Source: an uncultured Acidobacteriota bacterium
Lineage (GTDB): Bacteria; Acidobacteriota; Thermoanaerobaculia; Multivoradales; UBA5704
Length of the DNA stretch: 64,000 bases
Direction of reading: 5' to 3'
NCBI GenBank assembly: GCA_963761805.1
Contig: CAVXIV010000017.1
Location: 8,667 to 72,666, forward strand
The notes beneath the pieces were generated by a model, which saw nothing but the letters and a program-made list of their open reading frames with translations, was not told the origin of the DNA and did no database searches. Both the position numbers and the translations under genes were made by a program. Below are positions 7,301 through 27,089 of this stretch, piece after piece. Positions within the stretch are counted from its first letter, which is position 1. Each line of letters begins with the position of its first letter.

Positions 7301-10300
7301 GCCGCGCTGGCCCAGATAAGGCCGGAGGCCACCGCCGCCACGAGCCGCGGCGAGGCTCCGCGCACCGTCCTCGAAGGTCTGCTGCTGGAGCTCTGGGCCG
7401 AGACCCTCCAGCAGACCGGCCTCGGCGTCGACGACGACTTCTTCGCCCGCGGCGGCGATTCGATCGCCAGCATCCAGATCGCGGCCCGCGCCCGCAAGCG
7501 CGGCCTCGCGCTGGAGCCGAGCCGGATCTTCACAGCCCCGACCGTCCGCGTCCTGGCCGCCGCTCTGGAGGCGGAGAGGATCGCCCTCGGCCTCCCTGCG
7601 CGTCCGGAGGACCCGCGGGCCGTGCAGGAGCCGGCGGAGACGGTCTTCCCCCTGACGCCGGCGCAACACGGGATGCTCTTCTTCCACCTGTTCTCCCCCG
7701 CGTCGCGCGCCTACTTCCTGCAAGCTGCCTGCGCCATCCAAGGCAGCCTCGACGCCGGCGCCCTGCGGCGCACCTGGGAGGTGCTGCTCGCGAGGCACCC
7801 CGCTCTGCGGGCATCGTTCGTGTGGGACGGAGCAGCGGCGCCGTCGCTGCGGGTCCCACGCGACGTCGAGCTCCCCTGGCGGGAAGAGGACTGGCGCGGC
7901 CTCTCTGCTGAGAGCCAGCGCGCGGCCTGGGAGCGGCTCCTCCAGGAAGACCGCGAGCAGGGCATGGATCTCTCGCGGGCGCCGGTGATGCGCTGGGCTC
8001 TCGTCCGCTGCGGCGAGCGCTCCTGGCGTTTTCTGTGGACCTGGCATCACATCCTCCTCGACGGCTGGAGCGTCAACGTGCTGACCCGGGAGGGGCTCCG
8101 CCTGTATCAGGACTTCCGCCGCGGGGAGGAGCCGGATCTCGGCCCGGCCCCCTCCTATGCGGCCTATTTCACTTGGCTGCGGCGCCAGGACCGCGCTCGC
8201 GCGGAGGATTTCTGGCGCGGGCTGTGCGCCGAGACGCCCCCTGCCGGCCGCCTACCGCTGGATCTCGGCCAAGCCGCGAGCCCCCCCGCAATGCAGCACG
8301 TCCGCAGCGTCCACGCCCGGGTGCCGTCCGAGGCGCTGCGCGCCTTCGCCGCCGCCCACGGCCTCACCCTGAGCACTCTCGTGCAGGCGGCCTGGGGCTT
8401 GCTGCTGAGCCGGTGCGCGGGGACGGACGGCGTCCTGTTCGGGATCACCACCTCCGGGAGACCGGCGGCCGTACCGGACATCGAGGACCTAGTCGGGCTC
8501 TTCATCAATACGCTCCCCTTGAGCCTGCGCCTGCCGGTCCGGGTGCCGGTGCTCCGCTGGCTCCTCGACATCCGGGATCGCGTCCTAGCCGCGCGCGAGC
8601 ACGAGCACTGGCCGTTGCCCCTCATCCAGGAGTGGATGGGGGTGACGGGACCCCAGCCGCTCTGCGAGAGCATCGTTATCTTCCAGAGCCACCCCGCGCG
8701 GATCGAGCCGCCTGGCGGCGGCGCCGGCTTCGAGGTCAGCGAGGTCCAGAGCTTCAACCACACCAGCCATCCCCTCGTCCTCCTCGCCGTGCCCGGCCGT
8801 GACCTGTTGCTTGAGATCGCTTGGGATCCCGGGCGCTTCGACGCCGCGACCGTGCGGCGCCTGCAAACGCACCTGCACAGCTCCCTGGAGGCCCTGATCT
8901 CCGATCCCGAGGCCCATCTCGACGGCGTCGACGCGCTGCCGCCCGCCGAACGCCAGCAGCTTCTGTGCGAATGGAACGACACGGCGGGGGACAGCGAGCC
9001 TCTCCTCATCCCGCAGCGGTTCGGAAGAGTGGCAGCCGCACGCCCCGAGGCCATGGCGGTCGAAGGCGATGGCCAGGGTCTGACCTATGGCGAGCTGAGC
9101 TGGCGGGTGAGCCGTCTGGCCCGCCGACTGCGCCGCCTCGGCGTCGGGCCGGAGGCGCGGGTGGGAGTCCTCCTCGACAGAGACCCGGACCTGGTGGTGG
9201 CCCTGCTGGCGGTGATCGCGGCGGGTGGAGCTTACGTGCCCCTCGATCCTGCCGATCCGGCACACCGGACCGCGGCGGTCCTGGAGGACAGTGAGGCGTC
9301 CCTTCTGCTGACCAGGGAGCCCTTCGCCGATCACGCTCCAAGCGGGCGCTGGAAGATTCTCCGACTGGCCGCCGAGCCGCCGCTTCACGAGGAAGACCCC
9401 ACTCTCCCCGCGCTCGCCGGGCCGGACCACCTGGCCTGTGTGATCTATACCTCGGGGACCGGCGGGGCGCCGAAAGGAGTCATGGTGCGGAACGGCTCGC
9501 TCGCCCGCTACATCGAAGCGGCGGCGGACCGTTTCGGGATTGGGCCGGCCGACCGCGTCCTGCAATTCGCCCGCATCGGCTTCGACACCAGCGCGGAAGA
9601 GATCCTCACCTGTCTGACGCGGGGTGCGACCCTGGTGTTGCGGCGGGATCATCTGGCGGAAGCGGCGCCGGCTTTCACCCGTTTCTGCGAGGAGCGGGAG
9701 ATCACGGTCCTGGACCTCCCGACCGCCTACTGGAGCGCCTTGACGGAGGGGCCCGGTCTTGCAGCGGCCCGCGTGCCCTCCTCGTTGCGCCTGGTGGTGA
9801 TCGGCGGCGAGCGGGCCTCGCGGGAGGCGTTGCACCGCTGGCGTGCCTGGACCGGAGGGAGCGTACGGCTGATCAACACCTACGGCCCGACGGAGGCCAC
9901 GATCGTCACCTCCTGGTGGGAGCTCCCACCGGGGGACGATCCGGTGCCGGAGGTGCCGATCGGCCGGCCCGTGCCCGGAGCCCGGATCCATCTGCTGGAC
10001 GGCCGGATGCACCCCGTGCCGGCCGGCACCCCGGGCGAGGTGCACATCGCGGGCGCGGGTCTGGCGCGGGGCTATCTGGGCCGTCCGGAGCTCACCGCCG
10101 AGCGATTCATTCCCGATCCATTCGCGAACGGGCCCGGAGAGCGGCTCTACCGGACCGGGGACCTGGCGCGCCGACGGATGGACGGAGCCCTGGAGTTCCT
10201 GGCGCGTCTGGACCGGCAGGTCAAGATCCGCGGCGTGCGCGTCGAGCCGGAAGAGGTGGAGGCCGCTCTCCTGGCGCTGCCTGGAGTCCACCAAGCCGTG

Positions 10301-13255
10301 GTGGCGGCCCACGGCGAGGGGGCGGATCTCCACTTGGTGGCCTACCTGGTGCCGCAGGGCGGCGGCCTCGCTCTCGACCGCCTCCGCGATCTCCTCCGCG
10401 AGCGGCTGCCCGCGCCGATGCTGCCATCGGCCTTCCAGGTCCTGGAGCGGCTGCCGCTGACGCCCAACGGCAAGATCGACCGTCAGGCCCTGGCCGCGCC
10501 AACCGTCCGGGAGCCCGCAGCCGCGGCGCCCCCTCGCACACCGGTGGAAGAGGTGGTCACGCAGATCTGGGCGGAGGTCTTGGGCCGGGAGGACGTGGGG
10601 GTCCAGTACGATTTCTTCGCCGCCGGCGGCCACTCCCTGCGGGCGATGCAGGTCGTCTCGCGCCTGCGCCAAGCCTTCGGCGTCGAGCTGACCGTCCGGG
10701 AGCTGTTCGAGCATCCGACGGTCGCGGGTCTGGCGGCGCGGGTGGAGGAGGCCTTACGGCAGGGACTGACCGCCTCTCTCCCGCCGCTGGTGCGGGCGGA
10801 GCCGCACGGGGCGGCGCGGCCGCTGTCGTACGCGCAGCAAGGCTTCTGGTTCCTCGACCGGCTCCAGCCTGGCGGGATCGCTTACAACGTGCCGATGAAC
10901 GCGCGGCTCCCCGGGCCTGTCGACGGGGCGGCCCTGGACGCCGCTCTCCGTGAGATCGTGCGGCGTCACGAGATCCTGCGCACCCGCTATGAGGAGGTGG
11001 ACGGCGTCCCCGTTCAGGTGGTCGGACCGGCCGAGGGCTGGCCGGGCCTGATGGGCGTGGACCTGACCGCCCTGCCCGGCCGAGAGCGGCTGCCCGAGGC
11101 GTTGCGGCTGGCGCGGGAGGAGGCCGCGACGCCCTTCGACCTGCGACTCGGGCCGCTGTTCCGGGCTCGTTTGCTGCAGCTCGCACCCGAGGACCAGTGG
11201 CTCGTCGCGACGGTCCACCACATCGCCTGCGACGAATGGTCGGGCCGGATCCTGCTCCGGGAGCTGGCGGTGCTCTACGAGGCCTGCCACCGCGGGCACC
11301 CCTCGCCGCTGGCGGACCTGCCGGTGCAGTACGGCGACTATGCCGCCTGGCAGAGGAGCTGGATCCATGGCGAGCTCCTGGCCGGGCAACTGGCCTTCTG
11401 GCGCCGGCGTCTGACGGGGGCGCCGGCGGTGACGGCGCTGCCGGTGGACCGGCCCCGCCCGCCGGTGCAGACGTTCCGCGGCGCGCGGCGTCCGGTCAGC
11501 TTGGCGCATCGCGTGGCCGAGGGGCTCCGGGCCCTGGGGAGCCGGGAGGGCGCGACGCCGTTCATGGTCGGTCTGGCCCTGTTCCAGGCTCTTCTGCGGC
11601 GTTGGAGCGGAAGCTGCGACGTCAGCGTGGGCACGCCGGTTTCCGGGCGCCGTCTGGTGGAGGTGGAGGGGGTGATCGGATGTTTCCTCAATACGCTGGT
11701 CCTGCGGGTCCAGGGGGGAGAGGAGGCGAGCTTTCTGGACCTGCTCCGGCAGGTGCGGGAGCGGTGTCTGGAAGCCTACGCAAACCAGGACGTGCCGTTT
11801 GAGCATCTCGTCGAGGAGCTCGCGCCGCAGCGGAGCCTCAGCCATTCACCGCTCTTTCAAGTGATGTTCGTGCTGCTGCACGGAGACGCAGGGGCGGGCT
11901 CCGCCGCCGCGGATCCACCGATGCCGGCTCCAAGCGCGGCGAAGCTCGATCTGTCCCTGCTCCTGCTGGCTACCCGGTCGAGCCTTGCCGGGGAGCTGGA
12001 GTACAACACCGACCTGTTCGACGAGGCGACCGCCGTGCGCTGGTGCGCGGCTCTGGAACGTCTCGCCGAGGCCACTGCCGGCGAGCCGGAGCGCCCTCTG
12101 GCAGAGGTGGGTCCCTTGCCGGAGGGGCAGCGCCGCCAGCTCCTGGCGGACGGACCTCCGAGCGTGCCGGCGGCGGTGGCGACATGCATGGCGGTGACTC
12201 CGCGCGATCTGCTGGAGCTGGAGCTCACATGGCTTTGGGAGGATGTCTTGGAGCGCGGCCCGATCGGAGTGACCGACGACTTCTTCGCTCTCGGCGGCCA
12301 CTCCCTGCTGGCTGTCCGGCTCCTGGCGCTGGTGCGCCGCCGCTTTGGTCACGAGCTCTCCCTCGCCGACCTGTTCCGCGGCGCCACGGTGGAGCGCTTG
12401 GCCCACCTCCTGCGCACCGGCGCCGGAGGCGAGGCCCGCCGTCCCTTGGTAGCCGTCCGCCCGGCCGGGGATGAGCCCCCCCTTTTCTGGGCCCATCCGG
12501 TGGGAGGCAACGTTCTGTGCTACGCGGAGCTGGCGCGGGCCATGGATCCCGGGTTACCCGTCTACGCCTTCCAGAGCCCGGCCCGCGAGCCGGGGGCGCC
12601 GTCACGGATCGAGGAGATGGCCGAGCTGTACCTCGGCGAGCTGTTGGCGCTCCAGCCCCAAGGCCCCTATCGTCTCGGCGGCTGGTCGATGGGGGGGCTC
12701 ATCGCCTATGAGATGGCGGGGCGTCTGGTCCGGCAGGGCCGCACGGTGGAGATGCTCGCTCTGCTCGACACCCATCTCCCCTCGGCGGCGCGGCTCGATC
12801 CAGGGGACGAGGCGGCCTGGGTCGCCGGGTTCGCCCAGGACCTCGCCGGCACCCTCGGACGCTCTCTCCCGGTTTCAGCTCTGAGCCTGCGGACGGAGGA
12901 CCCTCTGAGCGTGCTGTTCGCGAGGTTGTGTGAAGCCGGGCTGGTGCCCGCCAGTCTGGGCCTCGACGAGATCCGTGAGCTCTACGGAATCTTCCGGGCC
13001 AACGCTGCGGCGCTGGCCGCCTACCAGCCGGCTCCCTACCCCGGCCGCATCTTCCTGGTCCAGGCCGGCGGCAGCTCCGCCGTCCCGCGGCGCGATCTCG
13101 CAGGCGCTTGGGCCCCCCTAACTGGCGGCGGCATCGAGAATCTGACGCTCGCCGCCGGCCATTACGAGATCCTCAAGGGGCCGGCGGTTACGCAGGTCGT
13201 CCGTTTTCTGGCCGGCCCGCTCGGCCGGCCGGCCCGCCTGCCCGCTCAGTCGTAG
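4346..13255 (+). CDS. NRPS C-A(Tyr)-T-C-A(basic aa)-T-C-T-TE
   Basis: GTG start after GGAGG; C motifs HHIVFDG, HHILLDG, HHIACDE; A codes by eye DASTVAAVC and DTEDIGTIV; T motifs GGDSI, GGHSL, GGHSL; TE GWSMGG. Confidence 0.95.
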   Translation: MQLAELTARVPERLRGLSPRQLELLKRELRGRGDDLASLRLLRCLEPPRELPLSAGQRRLWVADRLRPGGTAYNLWLAFRLFGPLEIGCLEQAVLAVARRHEVLRTSFAAREPEPVQIVHRELRPGWALVDLSGLPDAVREEVLLRLGREQIARPFDLERGPLLRGVVLRLAAGEHAVLATIHHIVFDGWSAGLFLREVGALYTALLRGVPPRLPELPVQYGDFALWQRRSAGEEGLRTQAAYWREALHEAPRALRLPTDRSLEITHQPAGASVRVSLEPELARALREFARRQGVTVFTVLAAGFGVLLGRLAEQDDILLGTPVSLRDRRELEGLIGLLVNTLVLRLRLQAATAFRRLLDEVRDTILGAHAHQEVPFEEVLAEVFGDRSAFPVQVLFGLLSLPGKPLEIPGLRSLGIDLEMAEAPFPLALNLEDRGEGIAGRIDYRIALFDRTTIHRLARQLQTLLQGAVTAPDRLLGDLPLLSAGERHQVLQEWARTGEELPEGGLVLSLVDAWAAASPDAVAVASGERSLTYRELAAASESWARTLQRRGVGPEVVVGICADPCPELIVGLLAVLRAGGAYLPLETSWPRPRLAAMLEETRVPLLLTVRGLAEGLAPAGSTVLDLAHPPRREASALQPPQIEQDTLAYVIYTSGSTGRPKGVQLTHGGLCNLVREQISLFGVRPGDRVLQCAPLCFDASVSEIFMALAAGAELHLEPREALLPGGELADALSCRAISVLTLPPSLLSALPALEFPELRVLIVAGEVCPPDLIETWGRGRRLFNAYGPTEATVCATSAACEPGCGRAPIGRPLANTRAYVLTADLRPVPPGAVGELWLGGVALARGYFGRPDLTAERFVPDPVGDLPGGRLYRTGDLARFLADGRLECLGRRDHQVKIRGVRIEPGEIEAVLRRHPAVVEAAVLVDGRADRDRTLVAYVAAGGRETSPGDLRGFVAAVLPAAMVPSVVVVLAALPRTAQGKVDRAALAQIRPEATAATSRGEAPRTVLEGLLLELWAETLQQTGLGVDDDFFARGGDSIASIQIAARARKRGLALEPSRIFTAPTVRVLAAALEAERIALGLPARPEDPRAVQEPAETVFPLTPAQHGMLFFHLFSPASRAYFLQAACAIQGSLDAGALRRTWEVLLARHPALRASFVWDGAAAPSLRVPRDVELPWREEDWRGLSAESQRAAWERLLQEDREQGMDLSRAPVMRWALVRCGERSWRFLWTWHHILLDGWSVNVLTREGLRLYQDFRRGEEPDLGPAPSYAAYFTWLRRQDRARAEDFWRGLCAETPPAGRLPLDLGQAASPPAMQHVRSVHARVPSEALRAFAAAHGLTLSTLVQAAWGLLLSRCAGTDGVLFGITTSGRPAAVPDIEDLVGLFINTLPLSLRLPVRVPVLRWLLDIRDRVLAAREHEHWPLPLIQEWMGVTGPQPLCESIVIFQSHPARIEPPGGGAGFEVSEVQSFNHTSHPLVLLAVPGRDLLLEIAWDPGRFDAATVRRLQTHLHSSLEALISDPEAHLDGVDALPPAERQQLLCEWNDTAGDSEPLLIPQRFGRVAAARPEAMAVEGDGQGLTYGELSWRVSRLARRLRRLGVGPEARVGVLLDRDPDLVVALLAVIAAGGAYVPLDPADPAHRTAAVLEDSEASLLLTREPFADHAPSGRWKILRLAAEPPLHEEDPTLPALAGPDHLACVIYTSGTGGAPKGVMVRNGSLARYIEAAADRFGIGPADRVLQFARIGFDTSAEEILTCLTRGATLVLRRDHLAEAAPAFTRFCEEREITVLDLPTAYWSALTEGPGLAAARVPSSLRLVVIGGERASREALHRWRAWTGGSVRLINTYGPTEATIVTSWWELPPGDDPVPEVPIGRPVPGARIHLLDGRMHPVPAGTPGEVHIAGAGLARGYLGRPELTAERFIPDPFANGPGERLYRTGDLARRRMDGALEFLARLDRQVKIRGVRVEPEEVEAALLALPGVHQAVVAAHGEGADLHLVAYLVPQGGGLALDRLRDLLRERLPAPMLPSAFQVLERLPLTPNGKIDRQALAAPTVREPAAAAPPRTPVEEVVTQIWAEVLGREDVGVQYDFFAAGGHSLRAMQVVSRLRQAFGVELTVRELFEHPTVAGLAARVEEALRQGLTASLPPLVRAEPHGAARPLSYAQQGFWFLDRLQPGGIAYNVPMNARLPGPVDGAALDAALREIVRRHEILRTRYEEVDGVPVQVVGPAEGWPGLMGVDLTALPGRERLPEALRLAREEAATPFDLRLGPLFRARLLQLAPEDQWLVATVHHIACDEWSGRILLRELAVLYEACHRGHPSPLADLPVQYGDYAAWQRSWIHGELLAGQLAFWRRRLTGAPAVTALPVDRPRPPVQTFRGARRPVSLAHRVAEGLRALGSREGATPFMVGLALFQALLRRWSGSCDVSVGTPVSGRRLVEVEGVIGCFLNTLVLRVQGGEEASFLDLLRQVRERCLEAYANQDVPFEHLVEELAPQRSLSHSPLFQVMFVLLHGDAGAGSAAADPPMPAPSAAKLDLSLLLLATRSSLAGELEYNTDLFDEATAVRWCAALERLAEATAGEPERPLAEVGPLPEGQRRQLLADGPPSVPAAVATCMAVTPRDLLELELTWLWEDVLERGPIGVTDDFFALGGHSLLAVRLLALVRRRFGHELSLADLFRGATVERLAHLLRTGAGGEARRPLVAVRPAGDEPPLFWAHPVGGNVLCYAELARAMDPGLPVYAFQSPAREPGAPSRIEEMAELYLGELLALQPQGPYRLGGWSMGGLIAYEMAGRLVRQGRTVEMLALLDTHLPSAARLDPGDEAAWVAGFAQDLAGTLGRSLPVSALSLRTEDPLSVLFARLCEAGLVPASLGLDEIRELYGIFRANAAALAAYQPAPYPGRIFLVQAGGSSAVPRRDLAGAWAPLTGGGIENLTLAAGHYEILKGPAVTQVVRFLAGPLGRPARLPAQS

Positions 13256-13528
13256 CGGAACGCGATTATCGGGTCGATCCGCGTCGCGCGCCGCGCCGGG
13301 AAGTAGCTGGCGGCCAGCGATCACCGCGAGGAACAGCGAGATCACTACGAAGATCAGCGGATCGGCCGCCTTGACCTCGAACAGCAGGCTCCCGAGGAAT
13401 CGGGTGAGGAGCAGGGCGGTCACGATCCCGATGCCGACTCCGATCAGCGCGAGCTTAGCCGCGGCCAATCACCAGGCCGATCACGCTGTCGGCCGTCGCG
13501 CCGAGCGAGGTCGCTGAACGGCCGCCCC
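13246..13528 (-). pseudogene. Degenerate duplicate of the ADOP permease 3' end
   Basis: 13246-13507 aligns with 15653-15918 with small indels; 13508-13528 matches about 16408-16428. Confidence 0.9.
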
Positions 13529-13564
13529 GCCCAGCAGACCGCATATCCTCTGGACTCGATACAT

Positions 13565-13840
13565 GAGCAAACCAGGCTGCGGCTTTGCCAAAATCTCCGC
13601 TCAGACGTCGTCCGACCGTCCTCACTACTCCCTTCATCCACCTTGATCTAGTGAACCCAGTTGCGGATCGTCTGCCGTCGGCTCAAACTCTGGCTTACGC
13701 GATAGCTCCTCCGGCGTGCGATCCGCACGGAGGAACTCTACCATCTACTGACGAAACTCTTGGGGTAGGGAGCTCGGTGTTAGGCATCTTGGCCCCTTTC
13801 TCCATAAGGATCATGTCCACTCAGCCGGGTCACCCCAGTC
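13565..13840 (-). mobile_element. IS3-family orfA remnant with probable terminal repeat
   Basis: Minus strand from ATG at 13787 reads, across frameshifts and stops, MPNT..PYPQEFRQ..EFEPT..TIRNWV..DEG..DGRTTSER..AKAAAWFA. Confidence 0.7.
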
Positions 13841-13860
13841 ACGAGCGACCGACCGATCTC

Positions 13861-13890
13861 TTGACAATCGCCCTGTATCAGCTGTAAAAA
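13861..13890 (+). promoter_or_regulatory. Possible sigma70 promoter for the precursor gene
   Basis: TTGACA-18 nt-TAAAAA upstream of an AGGAGG RBS at 13915-13920. Confidence 0.35.
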
Positions 13891-13926
13891 GAACTCTGTA
13901 TCTGGTGCCTAATCAGGAGGAACGCC

Positions 13927-14106
13927 ATGAAGAAGAAGACTGCGACCAGAAACACTCTCTCCATTAAGAGGGAGACAATCAGAACACTTTCGGACTCCGA
14001 GGCGAAGCTGGCGGCAGCCGGCATGGCAAGCTCATGCCCAATTGCTAGCTGCGACCCTCAGACGGATCCTAATTGCGGAGAAACCGGCCTCCCACCGACG
14101 ACCTAG
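13927..14106 (+). CDS. Putative lanthipeptide precursor, 59 aa (absent from ORF track)
   Basis: AGGAGG RBS; MKKKTATRNTLSIKRETIRTLSDSEAKLAAAG|MASSCPIASCDPQTDPNCGETGLPPTT; LxxxRETIRxL leader, Ser/Thr/Cys-rich core, directly upstream of LanC-like gene. Confidence 0.8.
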   Translation: MKKKTATRNTLSIKRETIRTLSDSEAKLAAAGMASSCPIASCDPQTDPNCGETGLPPTT

Positions 14107-14139
14107 TTACCGAGAAACAAAGCCTTACCTTGGTGGCCG

Positions 14140-15264
14140 ATGGACCGGCAAGGTAAGGCTTACGTTGTCCTCACTCAAGTCAGCATCTCCCCCTTGGCCT
14201 CCCACCACAACTCCACGCCTCTTGAGTGGGTCGAGACCGGCGCATGGCCGCAGAGCAAGCGTTCTCCAGGACTAGCAAACAGTTGGCAGGGCGCCGCATG
14301 GGTCGTTTTCAAACGGGAGCGGGCCGGCCATCCGATTCCGGATCGGATCGGCGAGAAGATCGCTCGTCGTCTCAATTCCGAGATGACCCTACCCGTTCCG
14401 AGAGGATACTGCGGCTTTTTCATCGGCTGCGCAGCGGAACCCCTGCTTGCAGCGTACGCCGCTCGCCTGGGACTCGTGGAGATCGCGCTCGTGCGGCGCT
14501 CCTGGACGCGTCTGAGCGACATTTTTCGGCACAGCCGGCAGTGGGACCTGAATCTCGGAGCCGCCGGCGCTCTCCTTGCCTGCTCGGAAATAGAAGAGGT
14601 GCTTCCTGGCATCGTTCCCCGTGCCCTAGCAAAACGTCTGGCAGCCCGCGTCCTGATGGCGATGGACCTATTGTTCCGGCCTGGAACGGCAGGTTGGTTC
14701 ACCGGCATGGCTCATGGCTTGGCGGGGGCGATGTTGGCGATCGAAAGCGGCGTGAGCCGGAGGTATGTTCAGCTGCAGCATAAGGCGTGCCAACGATACA
14801 TCGATGCTCTGGTTGGCGCGGCGACCAGCACCCGTAATGGGGAGCTCTTCTGGCCCCAGGTTTCTGGAGCGACCGAATTCGGCATGCAGTCGTGGTGCCA
14901 CGGGACCCCTGGCGTCGTCTTGGCTCTCCTCGCTCTCCATCGCTTGACGGGAGAGGCGGCCTACATCGAGCTCGCACTAAGCGGCCTCGCGGGTATGGAG
15001 CTGTTGGTTGACGGAGCGACGAGCCCGACGCTCTGCTGCGGCCGGACCGGCTTCGGTCACATTTTTCTCGAAGGGTTTCGCCTTACAGGGGAGCGGAGGT
15101 GGCTCCATGCAGCCCGCCAAGCGGCGCAGACGATCTCACCCCAGTTTCGCCCTCACCAGCTGAGTCTGTACAAAGGTACGCTCGGAGTGGCCTACCTGGA
15201 GCAGCGCTTGGCAGAGCCCTTCGCCTATCCCATGCCAGGGCTCGGCGCGCTGAGTGCTGAATAG
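14140..15264 (+). CDS. LanC-like lanthionine synthetase (cyclase) protein
   Basis: GMAHGLAG, SWCHGTPG, LCCGRTG and LYKGTLG motifs. Confidence 0.85.
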   Translation: MDRQGKAYVVLTQVSISPLASHHNSTPLEWVETGAWPQSKRSPGLANSWQGAAWVVFKRERAGHPIPDRIGEKIARRLNSEMTLPVPRGYCGFFIGCAAEPLLAAYAARLGLVEIALVRRSWTRLSDIFRHSRQWDLNLGAAGALLACSEIEEVLPGIVPRALAKRLAARVLMAMDLLFRPGTAGWFTGMAHGLAGAMLAIESGVSRRYVQLQHKACQRYIDALVGAATSTRNGELFWPQVSGATEFGMQSWCHGTPGVVLALLALHRLTGEAAYIELALSGLAGMELLVDGATSPTLCCGRTGFGHIFLEGFRLTGERRWLHAARQAAQTISPQFRPHQLSLYKGTLGVAYLEQRLAEPFAYPMPGLGALSAE

Positions 15265-15590
15265 CGACGGCTCGCGCAGACGATAACGAAGTCATCAGCG
15301 CAAGAGACTATCTGCCCCAGCCGTTCGGACACCAGCGTCACGAAGAAGCTCTCGCCCAGAGCGTTGTCGAAGCAGTCGCCGACCGAGCCCATCGAGGGAC
15401 AGACCCCGGCTTGGCGACCGCGTTGATCGAAGGCGATGGAGGTATACTGCGTGCCCTGATCGGAGTGAGGGATCACTTCCGATGGCCGGCGCTGCTCCAA
15501 CACCATGTTTAAGGCCGCGACCACCAACTCGGTCCTCAGGTGAGTCGCCATGAACCAGCTGACGACTCACGGCTCCAGACATCCAAGATC
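15265..15590 (-). mobile_element. IS3-family orfB (rve integrase core) remnant
   Basis: ELVVAALNMVL..IPHSDQGTQYTS..SMGSVGDCFDNALGESFF. Confidence 0.85.
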
Positions 15591-15652
15591 ATGTCCCGCA
15601 GCCCGACCTCGCACGCGCCTGGGCCCCCCTGGCTGGCGGCGGCATCGTCCGA

Positions 15653-18091
15653 TCAGTCGTAGCGGAACGCGATCATCGGGTCGATCCGCGTCGCGCGCCG
15701 CGCCGGGAAGTAGCTGGCGGCCAGCGCGATCGCCGTGAGGAACAGCGAGATCACTACGAAGGTCAGCGGATCGGCCGCCTTGACCTCGAATAGCAGACCC
15801 CCAAGGAATCGGGTGAGGAGCAGGGCAGCCACGATCCCGATGCCGACCCCGATCAGCGCGAGCTTGATGCCGCGGCCGATCACCAGGCCAATCACGCTGT
15901 CGGCCGTGGCGCCGAGCGCGATCCGTATCCCCATCTCACGCTGCCGCTGGGAGACTCCGTACGAGATCACGCCATAGATGCCGGCCGCCGCCAGCACCAG
16001 GGCGATGAGAGAGAGAAAGCCGATCAGCATCGCGCTGAATTGAGGCTGGCCGAACGCTTGATTGACCCACTCCTGCATCGTCTTGAGATCCGAAATCGGC
16101 TGGTCCGGATCGATGCCTCGTATCTTCGACCGGACCGCTTGGATCAGGCTGTCCGGCTGGACCGCCGGCGAGGACCGCAGAGTGACGAACATCGAGCGGC
16201 TCGGGACCTGCGGAACGGGGAAGTAGACCTGCTCGCGCGCCTCCCTTTCCAGACCACTCTGCTTAACGTGGCGGACGACGCCGACGACTTGCGTCCACTC
16301 TCCCTTCGACAGCCGCAGCCGTTTGCCGATGGGATCCTCGTCCGGCCAGGCATGCCGGGCGAGCGCCTCGTCGACGATCGCCACCCGCTGGGAGGCCGCG
16401 GCATCCAGGTCGCTGAACGGCCGCCCCTTGACTAGGCGGATGCTCATCGCCTTGAAGTAGCTCGGCGTGATCGACCGTGTGTCGGCATCGACGCTGAGTC
16501 GGCCGGAGGGATGACTCCGGGACTCCAAGTCAATGGTGCCGGACTCATGCGTATCGCTCATGGGCAGACGCGATACGGCGCCGGCCGCGCTTACGCCTGG
16601 AATGGCTTGCAGGTCCGTCACCAGCCGCGTGAAGAACGCCGCCCGCTGGTGGTCGTGCGGATATTTCGCGTTCGGCAGATTAAGCCGCATCGTTAGGACG
16701 TTCGCGGCGGAGAAGCCGGGATCGGCTCTCTGCATCCGCAGGAAGCTTTGGCCGAGCAGGGCGGCTCCGATGAGGAGGACGAGCGCCAGAGAGACCTCGC
16801 TGACCACGAAGACGCCCTGCAGGAAACGTGTCCGCGTACCCGCGCCGCCGCTGCGGCTCCCCTCTTTCAAGGTTTCGGTGAGGGAGGACGACGACGCCTG
16901 GAGCGCCGGCGCTAGGCCGAAGAAGAGACCGACGATCAGGGAGAGGCCGAGCGTGAAGAGCAGGACGCGGCCATCGACCGTGATCTCGCTTAGGCGGGGG
17001 ACGGTGCCCGGGCTGAGCGCGACGAACAGACGGACGCACCAGACGGCAATGAGGAGGCCGAACGCACCTCCGATGAGGGAGAGGATGACGCTCTCGGTCA
17101 ACAACTGCCGGATGAGACGGAGCCGGCCGGCTCCGAGGGACTTGCGAATCGCGATCTCCCGTGTGCGCGCCGTGGCACGCGCCAGGAGCAGGTTCGCGAC
17201 ATTGACGCAGGCGATGAGGAGCACGAAGGCGACAGCCCCGGCTAGCACGAACACCACGGTGCGCACCCCCTGCACGATCTGCTTCTGGAAGGGAACGATG
17301 CTCAGGCCCCAGCCGGTGCTCCGGTAGTTGATCGGGTACTCCCCCTCCAGACGCGCGGCGAGCCCGTTGAGCTCGGCCTGTACCTGCTCCGGTCGGACGC
17401 CGGGCTTCAAGCGGGCGAGAAGGCGCAGAAAATGGGCCCCTCGCTCCTCCTTGGCCAGGTCGGTGGCGATCGGGTGCCAGACCTGAACCTTTCCGAACTT
17501 TTCGTCGGGGGCCAGGAATTCAAAGCCGGGGGGGAGAATCCCGATGACCTGGTATTGCTGATGATCCAGCCGCAGATTCCTGCCGAGGATTCCCGGATCC
17601 CCACCGAAACTGCTCTGCCAGTACTCATGCTGAAGGACCACCACCTTGCGGCTGTTCGGCAGGTCCTCCTCCGGCAGGAACAGGCGCCCCTGGGCGGTCT
17701 CGACGCCGAGGAGCGGGAAGAAGTCCGCGGAGGCATAGCCCGCGCGGATCTGCTCCGGCTCGCCGTCGCCGGTCAGGTTCTCGTTGCCGGAGGTGACGGC
17801 GGCGAGCTTCTCGATACCCTTGATCTGTTGCTGCACATCGAGCAACTCGGGACCCGAAAACCAGAATTCGGGCAACCCCATGGCCTGGAAATGGGTCCAG
17901 AGGACCATCAACCGACCAGGGTTTTTGTAGGGCAGGGGGCGCAACAGGATGCTGTTGGCGACGCTGAAGATCGCCGAGTTTGCACCGATGCCGAGGGCCA
18001 GGGTGAAAATCGCGATCATCGTGATACTGTAGCTCTTGCCTAGCATTTTCAAGCCGAAGCGGACGTCCTGGAGTAGATCTTTCAAGCTCAT
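15653..18091 (-). CDS. ADOP-family (MacB/FtsX duplicated) ABC permease
   Basis: LALGIGANSAIFS, LLIACVNVANLLLARA, REIAIRKSLGA, REMGIRIALGA, PARRATRIDP. Confidence 0.95.
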   Translation of the reverse strand: MSLKDLLQDVRFGLKMLGKSYSITMIAIFTLALGIGANSAIFSVANSILLRPLPYKNPGRLMVLWTHFQAMGLPEFWFSGPELLDVQQQIKGIEKLAAVTSGNENLTGDGEPEQIRAGYASADFFPLLGVETAQGRLFLPEEDLPNSRKVVVLQHEYWQSSFGGDPGILGRNLRLDHQQYQVIGILPPGFEFLAPDEKFGKVQVWHPIATDLAKEERGAHFLRLLARLKPGVRPEQVQAELNGLAARLEGEYPINYRSTGWGLSIVPFQKQIVQGVRTVVFVLAGAVAFVLLIACVNVANLLLARATARTREIAIRKSLGAGRLRLIRQLLTESVILSLIGGAFGLLIAVWCVRLFVALSPGTVPRLSEITVDGRVLLFTLGLSLIVGLFFGLAPALQASSSSLTETLKEGSRSGGAGTRTRFLQGVFVVSEVSLALVLLIGAALLGQSFLRMQRADPGFSAANVLTMRLNLPNAKYPHDHQRAAFFTRLVTDLQAIPGVSAAGAVSRLPMSDTHESGTIDLESRSHPSGRLSVDADTRSITPSYFKAMSIRLVKGRPFSDLDAAASQRVAIVDEALARHAWPDEDPIGKRLRLSKGEWTQVVGVVRHVKQSGLEREAREQVYFPVPQVPSRSMFVTLRSSPAVQPDSLIQAVRSKIRGIDPDQPISDLKTMQEWVNQAFGQPQFSAMLIGFLSLIALVLAAAGIYGVISYGVSQRQREMGIRIALGATADSVIGLVIGRGIKLALIGVGIGIVAALLLTRFLGGLLFEVKAADPLTFVVISLFLTAIALAASYFPARRATRIDPMIAFRYD

Positions 18092-18162: not shown

Positions 18163-19428
18163 TCAGCGCGCGCCCTTGGTGTGAGAGGCAATTGCCTCCA
18201 GCGACTCCACAGCCTGCCGCCGGACATCGGGAATCGGGTGCTCGCGCGCGAGCTTCAGGAGCGCCTCGGCCCCGGCGCCGTCCGGAAGGTTGCCGAGCGC
18301 TTCGACCGCCGTTCTCTGGACCTCCCTATCGAGGTCCTGGTTGGCGATCTCGACGAGGATGGACAGCGACGAGCCGGCGGGCCACCGCCCGAGCTCTTCG
18401 GTCGCCACCCTCCGGACTTCGACGGGCGAGCCTTCCCGTGCCGCGCGGATCAAATCGTCCAGGGCGGCGGGGCTTCGGTGCCGCGCCAGTCCTTGGACCG
18501 CTTCCTGGCGTACGCGCAGAGAGCGGGCGGTGCGCGCCGCCTCCGCCAGTGCGATACGGGAAGCCTTGGACTCGTGTCTCCCAAGGCCGGACGCAGCCTC
18601 CGCCCGGACCTCTTCGGCGTCCTGACCGCGTAGGATGCTCAGGAGGAATGGGACCACCCGAGAAGACGTCGTATGGACACTGATGGCTTCAACCAGGTCG
18701 GCCTTGACACCGGCGTCGCCTACTACACTGAACAACCTTTCCAGGAGATCCAGGCTCTCAGTGTCTGCGGCTTTGCCTAGCCACACTATGCGACGGTAGC
18801 CGAGGTTAATGGGGAGCTCGACGTTGGACACCTGGATTGACTCGAGTGCTACGCCGCGCACGGGCACGGCCAGGAGCACGGCAACCGTCTTGTGCAGTTG
18901 TCCTGGCTTAGGGGCTCGGCTATCGGTGAGATCCTCAATCTCATTTAAAGCGCTGATGGTGCCAATCCATTGGTTTGAATCCATCGGTCGATCGATCGAA
19001 TAGCCGATCCAAGCACCCGCAGGGCTGCTGCAAGAAACTTGAAGGCCCCAGCTCCAGCGATTCGCCAACGTACCTGACGGATCGGGCGAGCGCAGGGTCG
19101 AGGCGGCATTAAGAGCAGCGGCTAGTGGAGTTCGCGACACCGAGGACGGCGATACTTTGCGGGGAGTCGCTGCGATCAACCCGACCGATCCAACCTGGGG
19201 CTCAAAGTCCGGGTAGTCCGCTGAGAGCCGAGCTCCTCCCCTAGCTTGCGGCACTTGGCTGTAGATTCCCGCTAGATTGTTAGAGCGCGCCACCGGGACC
19301 AGGAAAATCGCGTTGATCAGGGTGAAAACGGTCGTGCTGATGCCAATCCCAAGCCTTAGGGAGAGGACGGCGACTCGGGTGAGCCCGATTCTCTTTCGAA
19401 GCAGGTGGAAGGCTAGGTACGGTTGCAT
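18163..19428 (-). CDS. HEAT-repeat protein with a degenerate ADOP-like N-terminus
   Basis: C-terminal VRxxAxxxLG HEAT repeats; N-terminal LSLRLGIGISTTVFTLINAIFL..YPDF. Confidence 0.7.
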   Translation of the reverse strand: MQPYLAFHLLRKRIGLTRVAVLSLRLGIGISTTVFTLINAIFLVPVARSNNLAGIYSQVPQARGGARLSADYPDFEPQVGSVGLIAATPRKVSPSSVSRTPLAAALNAASTLRSPDPSGTLANRWSWGLQVSCSSPAGAWIGYSIDRPMDSNQWIGTISALNEIEDLTDSRAPKPGQLHKTVAVLLAVPVRGVALESIQVSNVELPINLGYRRIVWLGKAADTESLDLLERLFSVVGDAGVKADLVEAISVHTTSSRVVPFLLSILRGQDAEEVRAEAASGLGRHESKASRIALAEAARTARSLRVRQEAVQGLARHRSPAALDDLIRAAREGSPVEVRRVATEELGRWPAGSSLSILVEIANQDLDREVQRTAVEALGNLPDGAGAEALLKLAREHPIPDVRRQAVESLEAIASHTKGAR

Positions 19429-20044
19429 AGCTAGACTCCTGTTCGCCAGCAGCCCAAGGATTACTCTAACACTGCTTGGGAGCACATGGAAGAGCGTTGG
19501 GTAAGTTCCTGAGCTTACCGTTTCTTCACGCCGTCCCAACTGGTAGGCCCCGGGGAGGAACTTCTAACCGAGCCACCCCGCGGCCTCCGTGCAGACGGTG
19601 CAAAGCAGGGGCTGCACTTCTACCGCTGGTGCGGACACCGGACCAGAATTCTCCGCGCGGCTCGATCTGGCGGGCTACTGCTGGCCAGACGCGGCAGCTT
19701 CACCGAAGCCACTTGTCACGAGCCGACCGCTGGAGGCGAGTAGTCGCTCAACACAGGCGGCATGCCGTTCGGGTTCTCCAGCAGGTCCAAGGCAGTTTCG
19801 AGGCCCGCGAGTTGGCGCGCCGGGTCGTGCGGCCGGTCCAGCGGTAGCCATGGCTCAAGGGGACGCGGACACATCGCCGGGAGACTGGAGGTCTACACCT
19901 CGGCCGTCATCGCCGGTCTCCACCTACCCGTGCAGGATACCCGGTTGCCGGGCAGGCAGCGTCGATCCGGCCAGCCTCACCGAGGCCGGCTGTCTTCGAG
20001 GATCCTACACTTGGCTGGGGCGCCGTCGCGGCGGGCGGCGTGGA

Positions 20045-20933
20045 GATCCCACACCGTTCCCGGCACCCATCAGACGATTGTCGAACGGCAAGAGGCCAAC
20101 GCTCCTCCAGGCGCAGAGTGCCAGCCAACGAGTGGACGCGTGGGCTCAGGCTCGGCCGCCCGAGCTTTGGCAGAAAGTCGCGGTTCGTTCCGGCACCAAG
20201 GGAGAATTGCGCGTAGAGGCCTTGCACGGCTCTGTGTGGTTGTGGGACGGCAGAGAGCCGAAGGCCAGCGACTGGCACGTCGTGGCGATCCGGGAGTTGG
20301 CTTCTCCCAAGACGATCAAGTATGTCCTGAGCAATGCCCCTGTGGACACCTCGCTGGAGCGGTTGGTGCAAATGCAGAGGCAGCGGTTTTGGATTGAGCG
20401 TTCGTTCGAAGATGGCAAGAGCGCGAGCGGTCTGGCCGACTACCAGGTGCGGGGTTGGCGCGTGGCACCATCACATGGCCTTGGTCCTGATGGCGATGCT
20501 GTTCATGCTGGAGGGGAAGTTCTCCCACAAGGAGAGCTATCCGTTGCTGAGTTGTGCGGACATCGAAGCTCTGTTGGCTCGCCTCTTACCCAGGCGGGAC
20601 GTGACGGTCGATGAAGTCGTTCGCCAGATGGAAGTCCGGCACGCGGCTCGCCAGAGGGCGATCGAGTCCGCTTATCGACGACAACGACTCGCCGACGCCG
20701 GGTAGGGTGCTCCAACGGCGTCTTGGCCTCAAGTGGCATCTCAACAGGAGTCGCAGTCGAGCCCGCCATGCCACGGGTCGAGATTTCTCTGTCTCTGCGG
20801 CGGACGCGCAAGAGGTCGATTCGACTCACCAATGGAGATCTTGACCAGCGAGGCGAGCAGCGCGCGGCTTTACCCTGAGCTACGACGAGCACTTCGAGCA
20901 GCAGAGTCAATCTAACAAAGTAAAGTAGAATTA
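20045..20933 (+). mobile_element. IS701-family transposase remnant (C-terminal, frameshifted)
   Basis: KYVLSNAP..QRFWIERSFEDGKSASGLADYQVRGW / WHHHMALVLMAMLF; ends approximate. Confidence 0.8.
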
Positions 20934-21005
20934 GGGGTACGCCCATCCAGCCCGGTGCCGGCGGTCGGCGCGGAGTAAGCAGCCGCCGGCGAGGGCCTGC
21001 CGTTT

Positions 21006-23024
21006 CTACAGGGCGGGTGGTTGCAACACGACCACCCGCCGCCCCCAGAGATCTACCAGCGTCGAAACCAGCTCCTGGCGCCTGGTCTCGCCTTGGATAC
21101 CCTGGCTGTCCATCAGCTCCGCGATCGATCGCCGGTGATCGGCGGCGAGCAGGAGAAGGAAGAGATCCTCGGCGATCTCGACTTTCGATTCGCAGAAGAA
21201 ATCGTTGGCGGTGCTCTCGATGAAGTAGCGCATTTTCGAGATGCCGTTCATCCCTTCGTCGCGCCGCACCAGCTTACGGTTCTGGCGCAGGCTCGGCGCC
21301 AAGGCCCCATAGGCGGGATCCGCGGGGGAGAGCGCCCCTTTGCAGACCAGGTAGTCGCCCAGCACCAGATAGGTCAGCCCGGTCGTGAGATAACAGGCGA
21401 TCGCGTCCTCGGCCGAATCCACGATCGGTTCGGCGTTGTTGTTGAAGGACGTATTGAGCAGCATCGGAACGCCCGTCCGTTTGGAAAACTCGTCGAGCAG
21501 ATCCCAGTACCGGGGATTGTCCTGGCGCGACACGGTATGCGCGCGCGCCGTGCCATCCACGTGGGTGATCGCGCCGAGCTCGGCCCGCCACGCTTCCCGA
21601 ACGCCGAGCACGAAAATCATGAACGGAAACTCGGTGTTGCCCGGCACGGTCTCGAAAAAGTCGCTCACCCTCTCTTCAATCACCGAGGGAGCGAAGGGGC
21701 GGTATCCTTCCCGCTTCTTGATCATCCGGTTGATGCGGTCCTTGTTGTCGGGCGGACGGGGATCGGCCAGGATGCTGCGGTTGCCCAGGGCACGAGGACC
21801 AAACTCCGAGCGCCCCTGCACCCAACCGACCACTGCGCCCTCGGTCAGCAGACCGGCGGTCCGCTCGGCGATCCGCTCCACCTTCTCGAAGGACACCAGA
21901 CCTTCCCAGGATTCCAGGATCCTGCCGATCTCGTCCGGCGCCGGCAGATCGGAGCCGAGATAAACGTGGGTCATCGGCGAAGAGGGCCGGCCGTGACCCT
22001 CGTCGTGGAGTACTTTCCAGACGGCGCCCAGGGCGGTCCCCGCATCGTGCGCCGCCGGCTGCACGAACATCCTCTTGAACAGGCCGGAATACAGGATCCT
22101 GCCGTTCATGCTGCAATTGTGGGCCACGCCTCCGGCAAGGCAGAGGTTCTCTTCTCCGGTCGCATCCCGGAAGTGATGCATGATGTGAAGGGCGATCTCT
22201 TCCAGCGCGGCCTGCAAGCCGGCGGCGAAATCCTTGTGCACCTGGGTGAAAGGCTCCCCCTTGCGGCGCGCCTTCGCCAGCACTCCCGCCTGCTGAAGGT
22301 AATTCAACTGCTCGGCGAACGGAGCAAGCTCGTAGTTGCCGCCTGGCAACAGCTTGTAGCAGCGCCGGAACAAGCTCTCGTAGACTTTCGGATCGCCCAG
22401 GGGAGCGAGCCCCATCACCTTGTATTCGTCGAAGCGGGAGTAGCCCAGGATCTTGATGAGAATGGTGTACCAGTTGCCCAGCGACTGGACGTCCGGGACC
22501 TCCCGGATCGGCTTGAGCTCGCCGCCGGCCGCTTGCAGCACCATGCCGCACAGGCCGTCGCCGCTGCCGTCGAGGGTCATGACGAGTGCCCGGTCGTAAC
22601 CCGACGCGTAATACGCGCTGACGGCGTGGGCTATATGGTGATGGCAGAACTGGATGCGCTGGGTAACGTCCACCTGGAATTCCTCTTCCAGAAGAGCGCC
22701 AAGAGCGATACGGGCCGGCTGCGATTGTGCACTTGGTATCCCCAGCGCGAGGCGGAGCTGGTACATATCCAGCGCCCGCTCAGAAAAATTGAACACTACT
22801 CGGTCGACCTCACCCAGGCCGATGCCCGCCGTGTCCAGGCAGAAGCGGATCGCTTGCAAGGGGAAGAAGTTCGAGTGCTTGACGCGGTTGAGCCGCTCTT
22901 CCTCAATGGCCGCGACAATTTCATGATCCCTGACGAGGACCGCCGCGCCGTCGTGCTGCTCAAAGTTCGGCCCCGCATCCTCGAATTCCCGCACCTTACT
23001 ACCATGTATGCCGAGAAGATACAT
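21006..23024 (-). CDS. Carbamoyltransferase, CmcH/NodU/TobZ family
   Basis: HDGAAVL..EEERLNRVKH, HHHIAHA, EYKVMGLA, LAGGVAHN, EFGPRALGNRS, REGYRPFAP, LNTSFN. Confidence 0.95.
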   Translation of the reverse strand: MYLLGIHGSKVREFEDAGPNFEQHDGAAVLVRDHEIVAAIEEERLNRVKHSNFFPLQAIRFCLDTAGIGLGEVDRVVFNFSERALDMYQLRLALGIPSAQSQPARIALGALLEEEFQVDVTQRIQFCHHHIAHAVSAYYASGYDRALVMTLDGSGDGLCGMVLQAAGGELKPIREVPDVQSLGNWYTILIKILGYSRFDEYKVMGLAPLGDPKVYESLFRRCYKLLPGGNYELAPFAEQLNYLQQAGVLAKARRKGEPFTQVHKDFAAGLQAALEEIALHIMHHFRDATGEENLCLAGGVAHNCSMNGRILYSGLFKRMFVQPAAHDAGTALGAVWKVLHDEGHGRPSSPMTHVYLGSDLPAPDEIGRILESWEGLVSFEKVERIAERTAGLLTEGAVVGWVQGRSEFGPRALGNRSILADPRPPDNKDRINRMIKKREGYRPFAPSVIEERVSDFFETVPGNTEFPFMIFVLGVREAWRAELGAITHVDGTARAHTVSRQDNPRYWDLLDEFSKRTGVPMLLNTSFNNNAEPIVDSAEDAIACYLTTGLTYLVLGDYLVCKGALSPADPAYGALAPSLRQNRKLVRRDEGMNGISKMRYFIESTANDFFCESKVEIAEDLFLLLLAADHRRSIAELMDSQGIQGETRRQELVSTLVDLWGRRVVVLQPPAL

Positions 23025-23358
23025 CTTCCACGTCCTCCATTGACAGCCTCGTGGCCTCCAGAATCATCATCAATATATTAGCTCCGAAAAACAGTGCGAC
23101 GGATGAATATTAAATATTACTTATAGAACAGCTAAAGCTGATTGGCTATTTAGTAATCATCTGGGCCGTCTGATCGCATGGAAGGATGTCTCCTAGGCTC
23201 TTGTTGCCGTAAGCGCTTAGTTACAGGCAAATTATAGCGAATGACGTAGGACTGTCTAGACTGGGATTGTACGCAACTTGTACGCGGTTGGTCTCGCCCG
23301 TGCAATCGGGAGATCACCTGGGTCTCTAGTGGACATTTCTAGACTATAAATTGCGTCC

Positions 23359-23484
23359 ATGAGGGCCGCAATCAAGCTGACGGATGCTGAGTATACGGAA
23401 CTGAGTCGTCGTGCAGCGAGTCGGACGGGACGTGCCGAGGATGCACGCCGCGCTCGTGTCATCTTGCTTCTGGGCGAGGGATGA
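23359..23484 (+). mobile_element. IS630-family transposase N-terminal remnant
   Basis: MRAAIKLTDAEYTELSRRAASRTGRAEDARRARVILLLGEG*. Confidence 0.65.
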
Positions 23485-23831: not shown

Positions 23832-23957
23832 AACTATCCCGCCGCCCGCGCGTGACTGTCCTTCCATTCCTTCAAGCAGTACCTCGGTCGGCTCGTCTCC
23901 TTTTCACTCATCGTGTTCTCCTTCGGATCAGAACGCATGAGTTCCGTCCTCCTGCTC

Positions 23958-24896: not shown

Positions 24897-24916
24897 GTGG
24901 CCTCCTCGGACATGGA

Positions 24917-27088: not shown

Positions 27089-27089
27089 G

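Follow-up and report, generated by a model that had tools for sequence, protein, structure and literature searches.

A lanthipeptide-type precursor and its stand-alone cyclase in an uncultured Acidobacteriota bacterium: a candidate satellite of a dispersed class I-type system

How could a lanthipeptide be made from a locus that encodes a precursor peptide and a LanC-like cyclase but no dehydratase? The question is raised by a stretch of 64,000 nucleotides, hereafter the window, from an uncultured Acidobacteriota bacterium (Thermoanaerobaculia; Multivoradales; UBA5704; NCBI GenBank assembly GCA_963761805.1, contig CAVXIV010000017.1, positions 8,667 to 72,666 of the forward strand), in which a precursor gene (13927..14106) lies directly upstream of a stand-alone cyclase gene (14140..15264), both on the plus strand. 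An initial annotation of this DNA had proposed a minimal two-gene unit that either borrows a dehydratase in trans or performs different cysteine chemistry. Our analysis indicates that the precursor and the cyclase form a genuine two-gene unit with no dehydratase in cis, and the best explanation, judged from the sequences, is that this unit would be a working satellite of a dispersed class I-type lanthipeptide system. In the scenario that on balance we think probable, a LanB encoded elsewhere in the genome would dehydrate the precursor in trans and the local cyclase would close the rings, probably with each Cys N-terminal to its Ser/Thr partner. All of the enzymatic steps, the ring pattern and the leader cleavage are ones that we infer.

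The precursor, the cyclase and their relatives

The precursor gene runs from an ATG at 13927 to a TAG stop codon at 14104-14106 and encodes 59 amino acids (aa). A perfect Shine-Dalgarno sequence, AGGAGG (13914..13919, plus strand), can be read directly 7 nt before the start codon. Residues 1-32 form an L1a-type leader that ends in AAAG (...LSIKRETIRTLSDSEAKLAAAG), and the remaining 27 aa form the core, MASSCPIASCDPQTDPNCGETGLPPTT, with 3 Cys and 7 Ser/Thr (3 Ser and 4 Thr); the open reading frame (ORF), ribosome-binding site, leader and core are confirmed as first described. The top NCBIfam match of the leader was NF038153, lant_leader_L1a ('class I lanthipeptide'; E 5.5e-4, 20.0 bits, slightly below the cut-off of 22), and the leader could be aligned with 28 other L1a-type leaders (an alignment of 29). 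A search for precursor homologs in a collection of 5.8 billion proteins gave no candidate, and there no word set was shared even with the peptide itself. In the genome of the bacterium, NF038153 gave 26 matches at E <= 0.01, 22 of them above the cut-off, and a regular expression for the leader retrieved 47 small ORFs, 44 of which have at least 2 core Cys, compared with 2 and 0 when the same expression was run on reversed translated sequences. Because L1a is the best match of the leader, because a homologous leader lies upstream of a LanC gene at two of four metagenome loci described below, and because the regular expression retrieved 47 ORFs against 2 in the control, we regard the small ORF, on this sequence evidence, as more than a chance reading frame.

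The Cys residues of the core are spaced as C-PIA-S, C-DPQ-T and C-GE-T (C-x3-S, C-x3-T and C-x2-T). Over the three precursors of this family, namely that of the window and those of two metagenome loci (L018 and L020), a Ser or Thr stands at +3 or +4 of 11/11 Cys, compared with 36% of the 236 Cys in 44 L1a cores, while a Ser or Thr at -2 to -5 was found for 4/11 Cys in the family and for 88% of the 236. As L018 and L020 are close relatives, this pattern amounts to about two independent observations. The spacing suggests tandem small rings, and the likely product would therefore be a run of such rings with Cys N-terminal to its partner. A product with reversed rings would in turn provide a rationale for the precursor having a non-class-I, three-Cys cyclase of its own.

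The cyclase gene begins with an ATG at 14140, 33 nt after the precursor stop codon, and encodes a protein of 374 aa, although a TTG at 14194 may be the true start. The protein matched Pfam LANC_like (PF05147) with 68.9 bits (cut-off 23.2, E 3.8e-19) over profile positions 101-340 of 350 only, and it carries the motifs GMAHG (residue 189), WCHG (residue 252) and CCG (residue 299), in agreement with the LanC assignment made at first. H192, C253, C299 and C300 are invariant among 44 family members and D136 is kept in at least 90%; we take these residues to be the equivalents of the zinc-site and active-site residues of NisC. Because the zinc ligands are invariant in the 44 members, a Cys-Cys-Cys site defines the family.

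The closest relatives of this protein are mostly stand-alone as well. A word-indexed search found 17 of them (47-69% identity, all 215-391 aa), and an exhaustive HMMER search with the cyclase gave 2063 matches at E <= 1e-3. Among the best 60 of these (E <= 2.6e-20; query covered over about residues 32-373), 59 were stand-alone proteins of at most 410 aa and one had 532 aa; from about E 1e-17 onward, the matches were C-terminal domains of proteins of 760-900 aa. We built a FastTree phylogeny of 92 LanC domains with local SH-like supports, without named reference enzymes and with the WCYG/GLCHG LanCs of the genome as the outgroup. In this tree, the stand-alone family formed one clade of 32 sequences, all <600 aa, with a support of 89. 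Its sister clade (support 99) consists of ~785-aa kinase fusions and includes a kinase-LanC on contig C3 and the LanC on contig C16 of the same genome, while the LanM domains and three WCYG/GLCHG LanCs of the genome fell outside these two clades. The exhaustive search and the separate clade rule out a truncated LanM or LanL, an objection that the initial annotation had raised itself, because the protein belongs to a stand-alone family of ~350 aa that is sister to kinase-fusion cyclase domains.

The best NCBIfam partial matches of the cyclase were LanM and LanL: TIGR03897 (LanM) gave 60 bits (cut-off 304) without DUF4135, and NF038150 and NF038151 gave 58.5 bits (cut-off 650) and 32 bits (cut-off 575) without a kinase or lyase region. 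In searches of the PDB with the family profile, LicM2, GCR2, LanCL2 and LanCL1 were the best matches (E 1e-22 to 1e-24), with NisC at 5e-10. With its CCG motif and its grouping with kinase-fused domains, the cyclase does not belong to the class I lineage (Cys-Cys-His). Nor is the CCG motif a pointer to ProcM-type LanM, with which it had been linked at first, because 70 of the 75 more distant matches examined, which are kinase-fused and LanL-like, also carry CCG. The representative genomes of 185,579 species held no close homolog, only 8 partial loci that were at most 34% identical. One further match, in genome G178, was rejected as a family member because it is a weak fragment of 62 aa.

The genomic context of foreign family members was examined at four metagenome loci (L017, L018, L019 and L020), where the cyclases are 47-51% identical to that of the window (47-48% in L018 and L020) and where, as in the other neighborhoods, genes were called with our own caller based on G+C content at third codon positions (GC3). 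In L018 and L020, a homologous precursor of 61-63 aa lies directly upstream of the cyclase gene; its leader matches the window type (...KLSFKRETVR.LSA.E....VGG) and is followed by a Cys/Ser/Thr core. The supposed minimal unit of precursor and LanC is thus genuine and recurs in the same position at two of the four loci; at the other two, L019 lacks a precursor over the 3.5 kb that precede and the 1.3 kb that follow the cyclase gene, and L017 offers only ~200 nt of upstream sequence. Beyond the pair, L018 encodes a multihaem-like protein and a TetR regulator and no dehydratase, and because these are its neighbors, the bare two-gene form appears to be the layout of the family itself at least in L018. 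Directly upstream of the L020 precursor we noted a gene for an OmdA protein ('bacteriocin-protection, YdeI/OmpD-associated'; L020 422-1366), and a second OmdA gene lies ~1.2 kb from a precursor-LanC pair on contig C16 of the bacterium's own genome (L031 7595-8203); both may be immunity genes.

The precursor stop codon is followed by a stem-loop (14120..14161, plus strand) that reaches into the start of the cyclase coding sequence; its stem of 13 bp is perfect, with 14120-14132 paired to 14149-14161 and the cyclase ATG in the loop. The 91-nt fold at this hairpin has an energy of -33.4 kcal/mol (z -3.54), and none of 200 shuffled sequences was equally stable. Similar hairpins follow the precursor stop codon directly in L018 (z -3.3) and in the C16 pair (z -4.1); the pair on contig C2 has a stem of 11 bp that is not significant (z -1.3), and no hairpin follows the precursor in L020. 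The hairpin is probably an attenuator or an mRNA stabilizer of the kind that follows lanA genes. A scan of 13400-15700 for sigma-70-like promoters found no site, an Rfam scan gave no match, and a tRNA scan of the window found none. No RNA run was found to contain the stretch, and small shares of it were present in two soil-metagenome runs only.

The solitary LanB and the L1a leaders

No Lant_dehydr_N/C, DUF4135, kinase, APH or RamC_N domain was found in a Pfam scan of 43 ORFs of the window; two nonribosomal peptide synthetase (NRPS) ORFs (3-4388 and 4346-13255) were read from their translation only. The lack of a recognizable dehydratase therefore holds for the window, as first noted, but it does not hold for the genome. 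A genome-wide search for LanB, LanM and LanKC, the check proposed with the initial annotation, returned one LanB on contig C14, two LanM and one LanKC, and the genome also encodes a kinase-LanC and an LxmK-like kinase. There were 11 LANC_like matches: the two LanM, the RamC_N-kinase-LanC protein (LanKC), a kinase-LanC of 786 aa, a LanC beside the LxmK-like kinase and six stand-alone LanCs with no adjacent kinase gene. For five of these six, on contigs C17 (the window), C2, C16, C5 and C12, an L1a precursor is found no more than 200 nt away, and at the latter four loci, no dehydratase was found by Pfam among the genes called within about ±7 kb. The LanCs on C2, C5 and C12 carry the canonical WCYG/GLCHG motifs, while those of the window and C16 carry CCG. 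Far from being a lone oddity, the unit belongs to a set of five precursor-LanC pairs in this genome, and its precursor is among 44 with the same type of leader. Several L1a precursors are also arranged in tandem or divergent pairs, distant from every lanthipeptide enzyme gene of their contig (G000:C1:4525-4972, C14:389793-390146, C23:714172-714646 and C14:34910-35626, G000 being the genome studied here).

The single LanB of the genome has 1108 aa with both Lant_dehydr_N and Lant_dehydr_C domains. Its gene (G000:C14:426-429 kb) is flanked by an RNase II-like gene and the gene for chorismate synthase, with no adjacent LanC gene and no L1a ORF within the 20-kb locus. The RNB-LanB synteny was present in 6/6 loci fetched from the genus, and LanB homologs with 62-96% identity are labelled by their sources as Thermoanaerobaculia or Acidobacteriota metagenome-assembled genomes.

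To relate LanB to L1a leaders, we used a genus set of 41 genomes and a phylum sample of 400 other genomes. In the genus, a strong LanB match (best E <= 1.3e-54) was found in 36/41 genomes, and 35 of these 36 hold 8-22 L1a matches; the exception, G011, is 74% complete. None of the five genomes without a strong LanB holds an L1a match, and they have 1-3 LanC-like matches versus 5-16 in the rest. In the phylum sample, LanB was found in 44 genomes, and these include every one of the 13 genomes with L1a leaders. The classical clustered form, with an L1a ORF 1.7-7.3 kb from LanB, was present in 8 of these 13 genomes (7/12 without G209, which is flagged as unpublished). The genome inventory and these counts are drawn from related genomes, which are not independent of each other, and the counts therefore show an association and not a probability.

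Two genomes of the genus also share a larger cluster with L1a, LanC and tailoring genes. In G006 and G002 (L107, G006:C1:1909500-1926500; L108, G002:C8:15500-30428), genes for a halogenase-like protein, an RPE65-like oxygenase, a LanC, an L1a precursor, a second LanC, a methyltransferase and two AIM24 proteins lie together; of 28 genes called there, 17 were scanned, and no dehydratase family was found in these. In G006, which is a single contig, the nearest Lant_dehydr_N match is ~525 kb from the LanC-L1a-LanC cluster. As a separate observation, an L1a precursor in G029 (L047, G029:C11:110556-115577; precursor 4695-4868, minus strand) is convergent with the conserved LanB gene and lies right at the 3' end of the latter, an arrangement that is a direct physical link between an L1a precursor and LanB.

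Taken with the co-occurrence of LanB and L1a leaders, these findings favor the earlier proposal that a dehydratase is borrowed in trans, although the dehydration itself is inferred only. The steps might run as follows. The strong ribosome-binding site would drive translation of the precursor, and the hairpin after its stop codon would limit read-through into the cyclase gene. The L1a-type leader would be recognized by the solitary LanB on C14, which would convert Ser and Thr of the core into dehydroalanine and dehydrobutyrine (Dha/Dhb). The adjacent Cys-Cys-Cys cyclase would then add the three core Cys to Dha/Dhb, giving a run of small reversed rings. The leader would finally be cut at the AAAG/GG site, perhaps by the only C39-peptidase ABC exporter encoded in the genome. 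C39 peptidases were uninformative as a co-varying part of such a system, being present in 41/41 genomes of the genus, and the exporter thus shows no specific tie to the unit.

A wider proposal is that the genus as a whole has a hub-and-spoke network for class I lanthipeptides, in which one conserved, solitary LanB would serve dozens of scattered precursors, private cyclases of different origin would set the ring topology, and the imported Cys-Cys-Cys family would be a specialist for reversed tandem small rings that canonical LanCs do not make. We put this proposal forward tentatively, as somewhat less likely to hold than to fail.

An apparently imported insert and the alternative explanations

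Several observations weigh against the scenario of a working satellite served by LanB. The window leader is under the curated cut-off of NF038153 (20 vs 22 bits), as are those of L018 (17.4 bits) and L020 (20.9 bits). A precursor was seen at just two of the four homolog loci, and in L019, the family member lacks a precursor and has a Ser/Thr kinase gene on its downstream side, ~750 nt away. By descent, the cyclase does not group with class I LanCs but is sister to kinase-fused, LanL-like cyclase domains. The association between LanB and L1a leaders was counted in related genomes. No stand-alone member of the family was found in the other 40 genus genomes, the 400 class genomes or the 400 phylum genomes sampled, where the top 5-33 candidates per genome were scored. 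Finally, because the unit is foreign to the lineage of the host, the compatibility of the resident LanB with an imported leader is an assumption of the scenario.

This foreign character lends itself to another explanation, in which the pair would be an inert passenger: a piece of a larger foreign cluster, carried in by recombination or an insertion sequence (IS), that has left the dehydratase of that cluster behind and gives rise to no mature product here. We consider this unlikely, though of the alternatives, it survives best. The insert lies between two direct repeats and is made up of non-coding DNA (~400 nt), the precursor and cyclase genes and a remnant of an rve transposase. The left copy of the repeat (~430 bp, 13082..13512) consists of the 3' end of the NRPS gene and a 3' fragment of an ADOP/FtsX permease gene, and within it lies a permease pseudogene (13118-13468, minus strand) whose translation resembles the C-terminus of the 812-aa permease encoded downstream; the right copy (15593..15923) runs into that intact gene. 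The copies are 87-97% identical (repeat families D1-D4). Abutting the cyclase gene, and overlapping its 3' end by 40 nt, is an IS fragment that encodes the C-terminal 108 aa of a transposase with an rve integrase core (15225..15551, minus strand; Pfam rve E 3.4e-8, profile positions 44-102 of 102 only), and similar DNA (77-81% identity) is present in two other genus genomes. The G+C content over 13513-15592 is 60.7%, lower than that of the genome (68.2%) and that of the adjacent NRPS DNA (72.3%), and the GC3 of the cyclase gene is 0.70 versus a host-typical 0.85-0.95. In the 40 other genus genomes, none of the 150 matches listed (of 360) covers the precursor or cyclase DNA, and no 'empty site' was found among them, only NRPS, permease and IS DNA at the level of paralogs (65-81%).

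Because of the low G+C content, the IS fragment, the bracketing repeat of ~430 bp and the lack of a counterpart found in the genus, the precursor-cyclase unit looks imported. This layout of repeats and insert is what one crossover between a circular element and the permease 3' end would leave behind, and the unit was probably brought in by recombination at that site together with the IS. These features, along with the lack of stand-alone relatives in the class and phylum samples, would also be expected of an inert passenger. However, both ORFs are intact, the set of conserved catalytic residues is complete, and the ribosome-binding site is perfect and is joined by a lanA-type hairpin. Moreover, L018 has the same bare pair, and the leader type is the one that the host's resident system uses.

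A second alternative accepts dehydration in trans but assigns it to a kinase-type enzyme, either the C3 kinase-LanC or a Ser/Thr kinase with a lyase, or to a LanM, with the local cyclase finishing the product. Because the ancestry of the cyclase lies outside class I LanC, a kinase-type partner is conceivable: the family is sister (support 99) to the ~785-aa kinase-fusion cyclase domains including that of the C3 protein, the best NCBIfam partial matches are LanM and LanL, and the genome encodes such enzymes. In L019 (5303-5890), the cyclase gene is followed by a gene of 192 aa and then by the N-terminus of a Ser/Thr protein kinase. The C3 protein, however, scored 166 bits against the LanL cut-off of 650 and aligned to positions 189-809 of 851 only, and it therefore lacks the lyase part; no L1a peptide was found within its 20-kb locus (L035, G000:C3:120500-140499, gene at 8101-10461). 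The precursors of the two LanM of the genome have a leader type of their own (..IRAWKDP.YR..), whereas L1a leaders track LanB in the genus and phylum samples. We thus hold this alternative to be improbable, and more so than the inert passenger.

Two further candidates were rejected. A stand-alone DUF4135 protein on contig C23 could be considered as the partner of a split LanM, but the LanM-type precursor upstream of it has lost its core; the 626-aa DUF4135-only protein (L029, G000:C23:107000-126999, 8994-11185, minus strand) lies beside an ABC transporter gene and this core-less leader ORF. Because the precursor there is LanM-type and core-less, the locus is, by its sequence, a decayed class II cluster. 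An L1a peptide 1.3 kb upstream of the LanM gene on contig C10 was dismissed as a sign that LanM accepts L1a leaders, because two precursors of the LanM type immediately precede that gene. We also noted that ~50 proteins of 760-830 aa resemble the C3 protein, with CCG and a LanL match from position 189 on that shows no lyase part, and form a widespread class of ~785-aa kinase-LanCs. In an unusual pairing (L037, G000:C19:240000-259999), the LxmK-like class V kinase gene (7128-8225; NF038156 104.9 bits, cut-off 315) adjoins the gene of a stand-alone LanC of 483 aa (9091-10542), the best model of which is the cyclase part of LanM.

The last alternative, that no dehydration takes place and that the LanC-like protein performs other Cys chemistry (with another electrophile, or as a chaperone or redox protein) or the peptide forms disulfides, can be drawn from the odd number of Cys in the core (3), from a family profile that matches LanCL1, LanCL2 and GCR2 about as well as LicM2 and better than NisC, and from the existence of LanC-like proteins with activities other than lanthionine cyclization, but it is very improbable given the lanthipeptide-type leader, the Ser or Thr at +3 or +4 of every Cys in the three family precursors, the invariant zinc-site and acid/base set of lanthionine cyclases, and the nearest relatives, which are cyclase domains of lanthipeptide synthetases.

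Relation to known systems and surroundings of the unit

A working satellite would resemble class I lanthipeptide systems of the nisin type (LanA, LanB and LanC) in its precursor with a leader nearest to the L1a type and a Ser/Thr/Cys core, its separate zinc cyclase of the LanC fold and the full-length LanB in the genome. However, the LanB is solitary, lies on another contig and is conserved across the genus instead of standing in a cluster; the cyclase is Cys-Cys-Cys and not Cys-Cys-His and falls outside the class I LanC clade of this genome; and the spacing within the core points to rings in which Cys is N-terminal to its partner. In the prochlorosin system of class II (PMC7268733, PMC11251773), one enzyme serves many dispersed precursors. 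The likeness to ProcM lies in one conserved leader with hypervariable cores, precursors scattered far from the dehydratase, and a Cys-Cys-Cys zinc site. Here, however, the hub would be a LanB and not a LanM, cyclization would fall to several separate LanC genes that each adjoin a precursor, DUF4135 plays no part, and the best match of the leader is L1a and not Nif11/NHLP. The unit is therefore class I-like in its parts and prochlorosin-like in its layout but a full member of neither, because the LanB is unlinked, the cyclase is outside the class I lineage and DUF4135 is lacking. The ~785-aa kinase fusions of the class IV LanL-like kind are the nearest relatives of the cyclase by sequence and in the tree and share its CCG (70/75), but the window family is without a kinase or lyase part (59/60 best matches <= 410 aa).

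A computational survey names 'B-CCC', a LanB with a Cys-Cys-Cys cyclase, among four undescribed combinations of synthetases (PMC11251773, section 3.2). The pairing of enzyme types is like that proposed here; the survey sought co-clustered genes, whereas our LanB and cyclase are unlinked. Stand-alone LanC genes without catalytic residues have been described in Bacteroidales, in genomes without any LanB (PMC10352776). Full-text literature searches turned up neither a description of precursor-LanC satellites that depend on an unlinked LanB nor one of this family of cyclases.

If the scenario is true, class I lanthipeptide biosynthesis can be split across a chromosome, and mining that demands LanB and LanC together would miss most products of such organisms (44 precursors against one LanB). 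It would also be a natural case of one dehydratase feeding several cyclases, a design sought in combinatorial lanthipeptide engineering, and would draw attention to an uncharacterized family of compact cyclases (~350 aa) that have three Cys at the zinc site and act on a simple cognate substrate. The precursor-cyclase pair is easy to test in Escherichia coli for ring polarity and promiscuity.

The position of the unit beside NRPS genes and an ADOP permease, noted at first as a seat inside an NRPS island, holds as such, but given the G+C content and the repeats, the adjacency looks like an accident of insertion and not a functional link. The intact permease of the MacB_PCD/FtsX (ADOP) type (15653..18091, minus strand, 812 aa; MacB_PCD 1.6e-42, FtsX 2.2e-27) is a neighbor and at most a candidate member of the system. 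Downstream of it lie NRPS-support genes for a carbamoyltransferase, an OTCase-like protein, an ornithine cyclodeaminase-like protein and a pyridoxal phosphate (PLP) enzyme, and further downstream, genes for a DDE transposase, a phage-type integrase and IstB; the coordinates of these support and mobile genes are 18163-28756, 29210-30589, 34968-36296 and 52284-53039. The whole stretch looks like an island rich in mobile elements.

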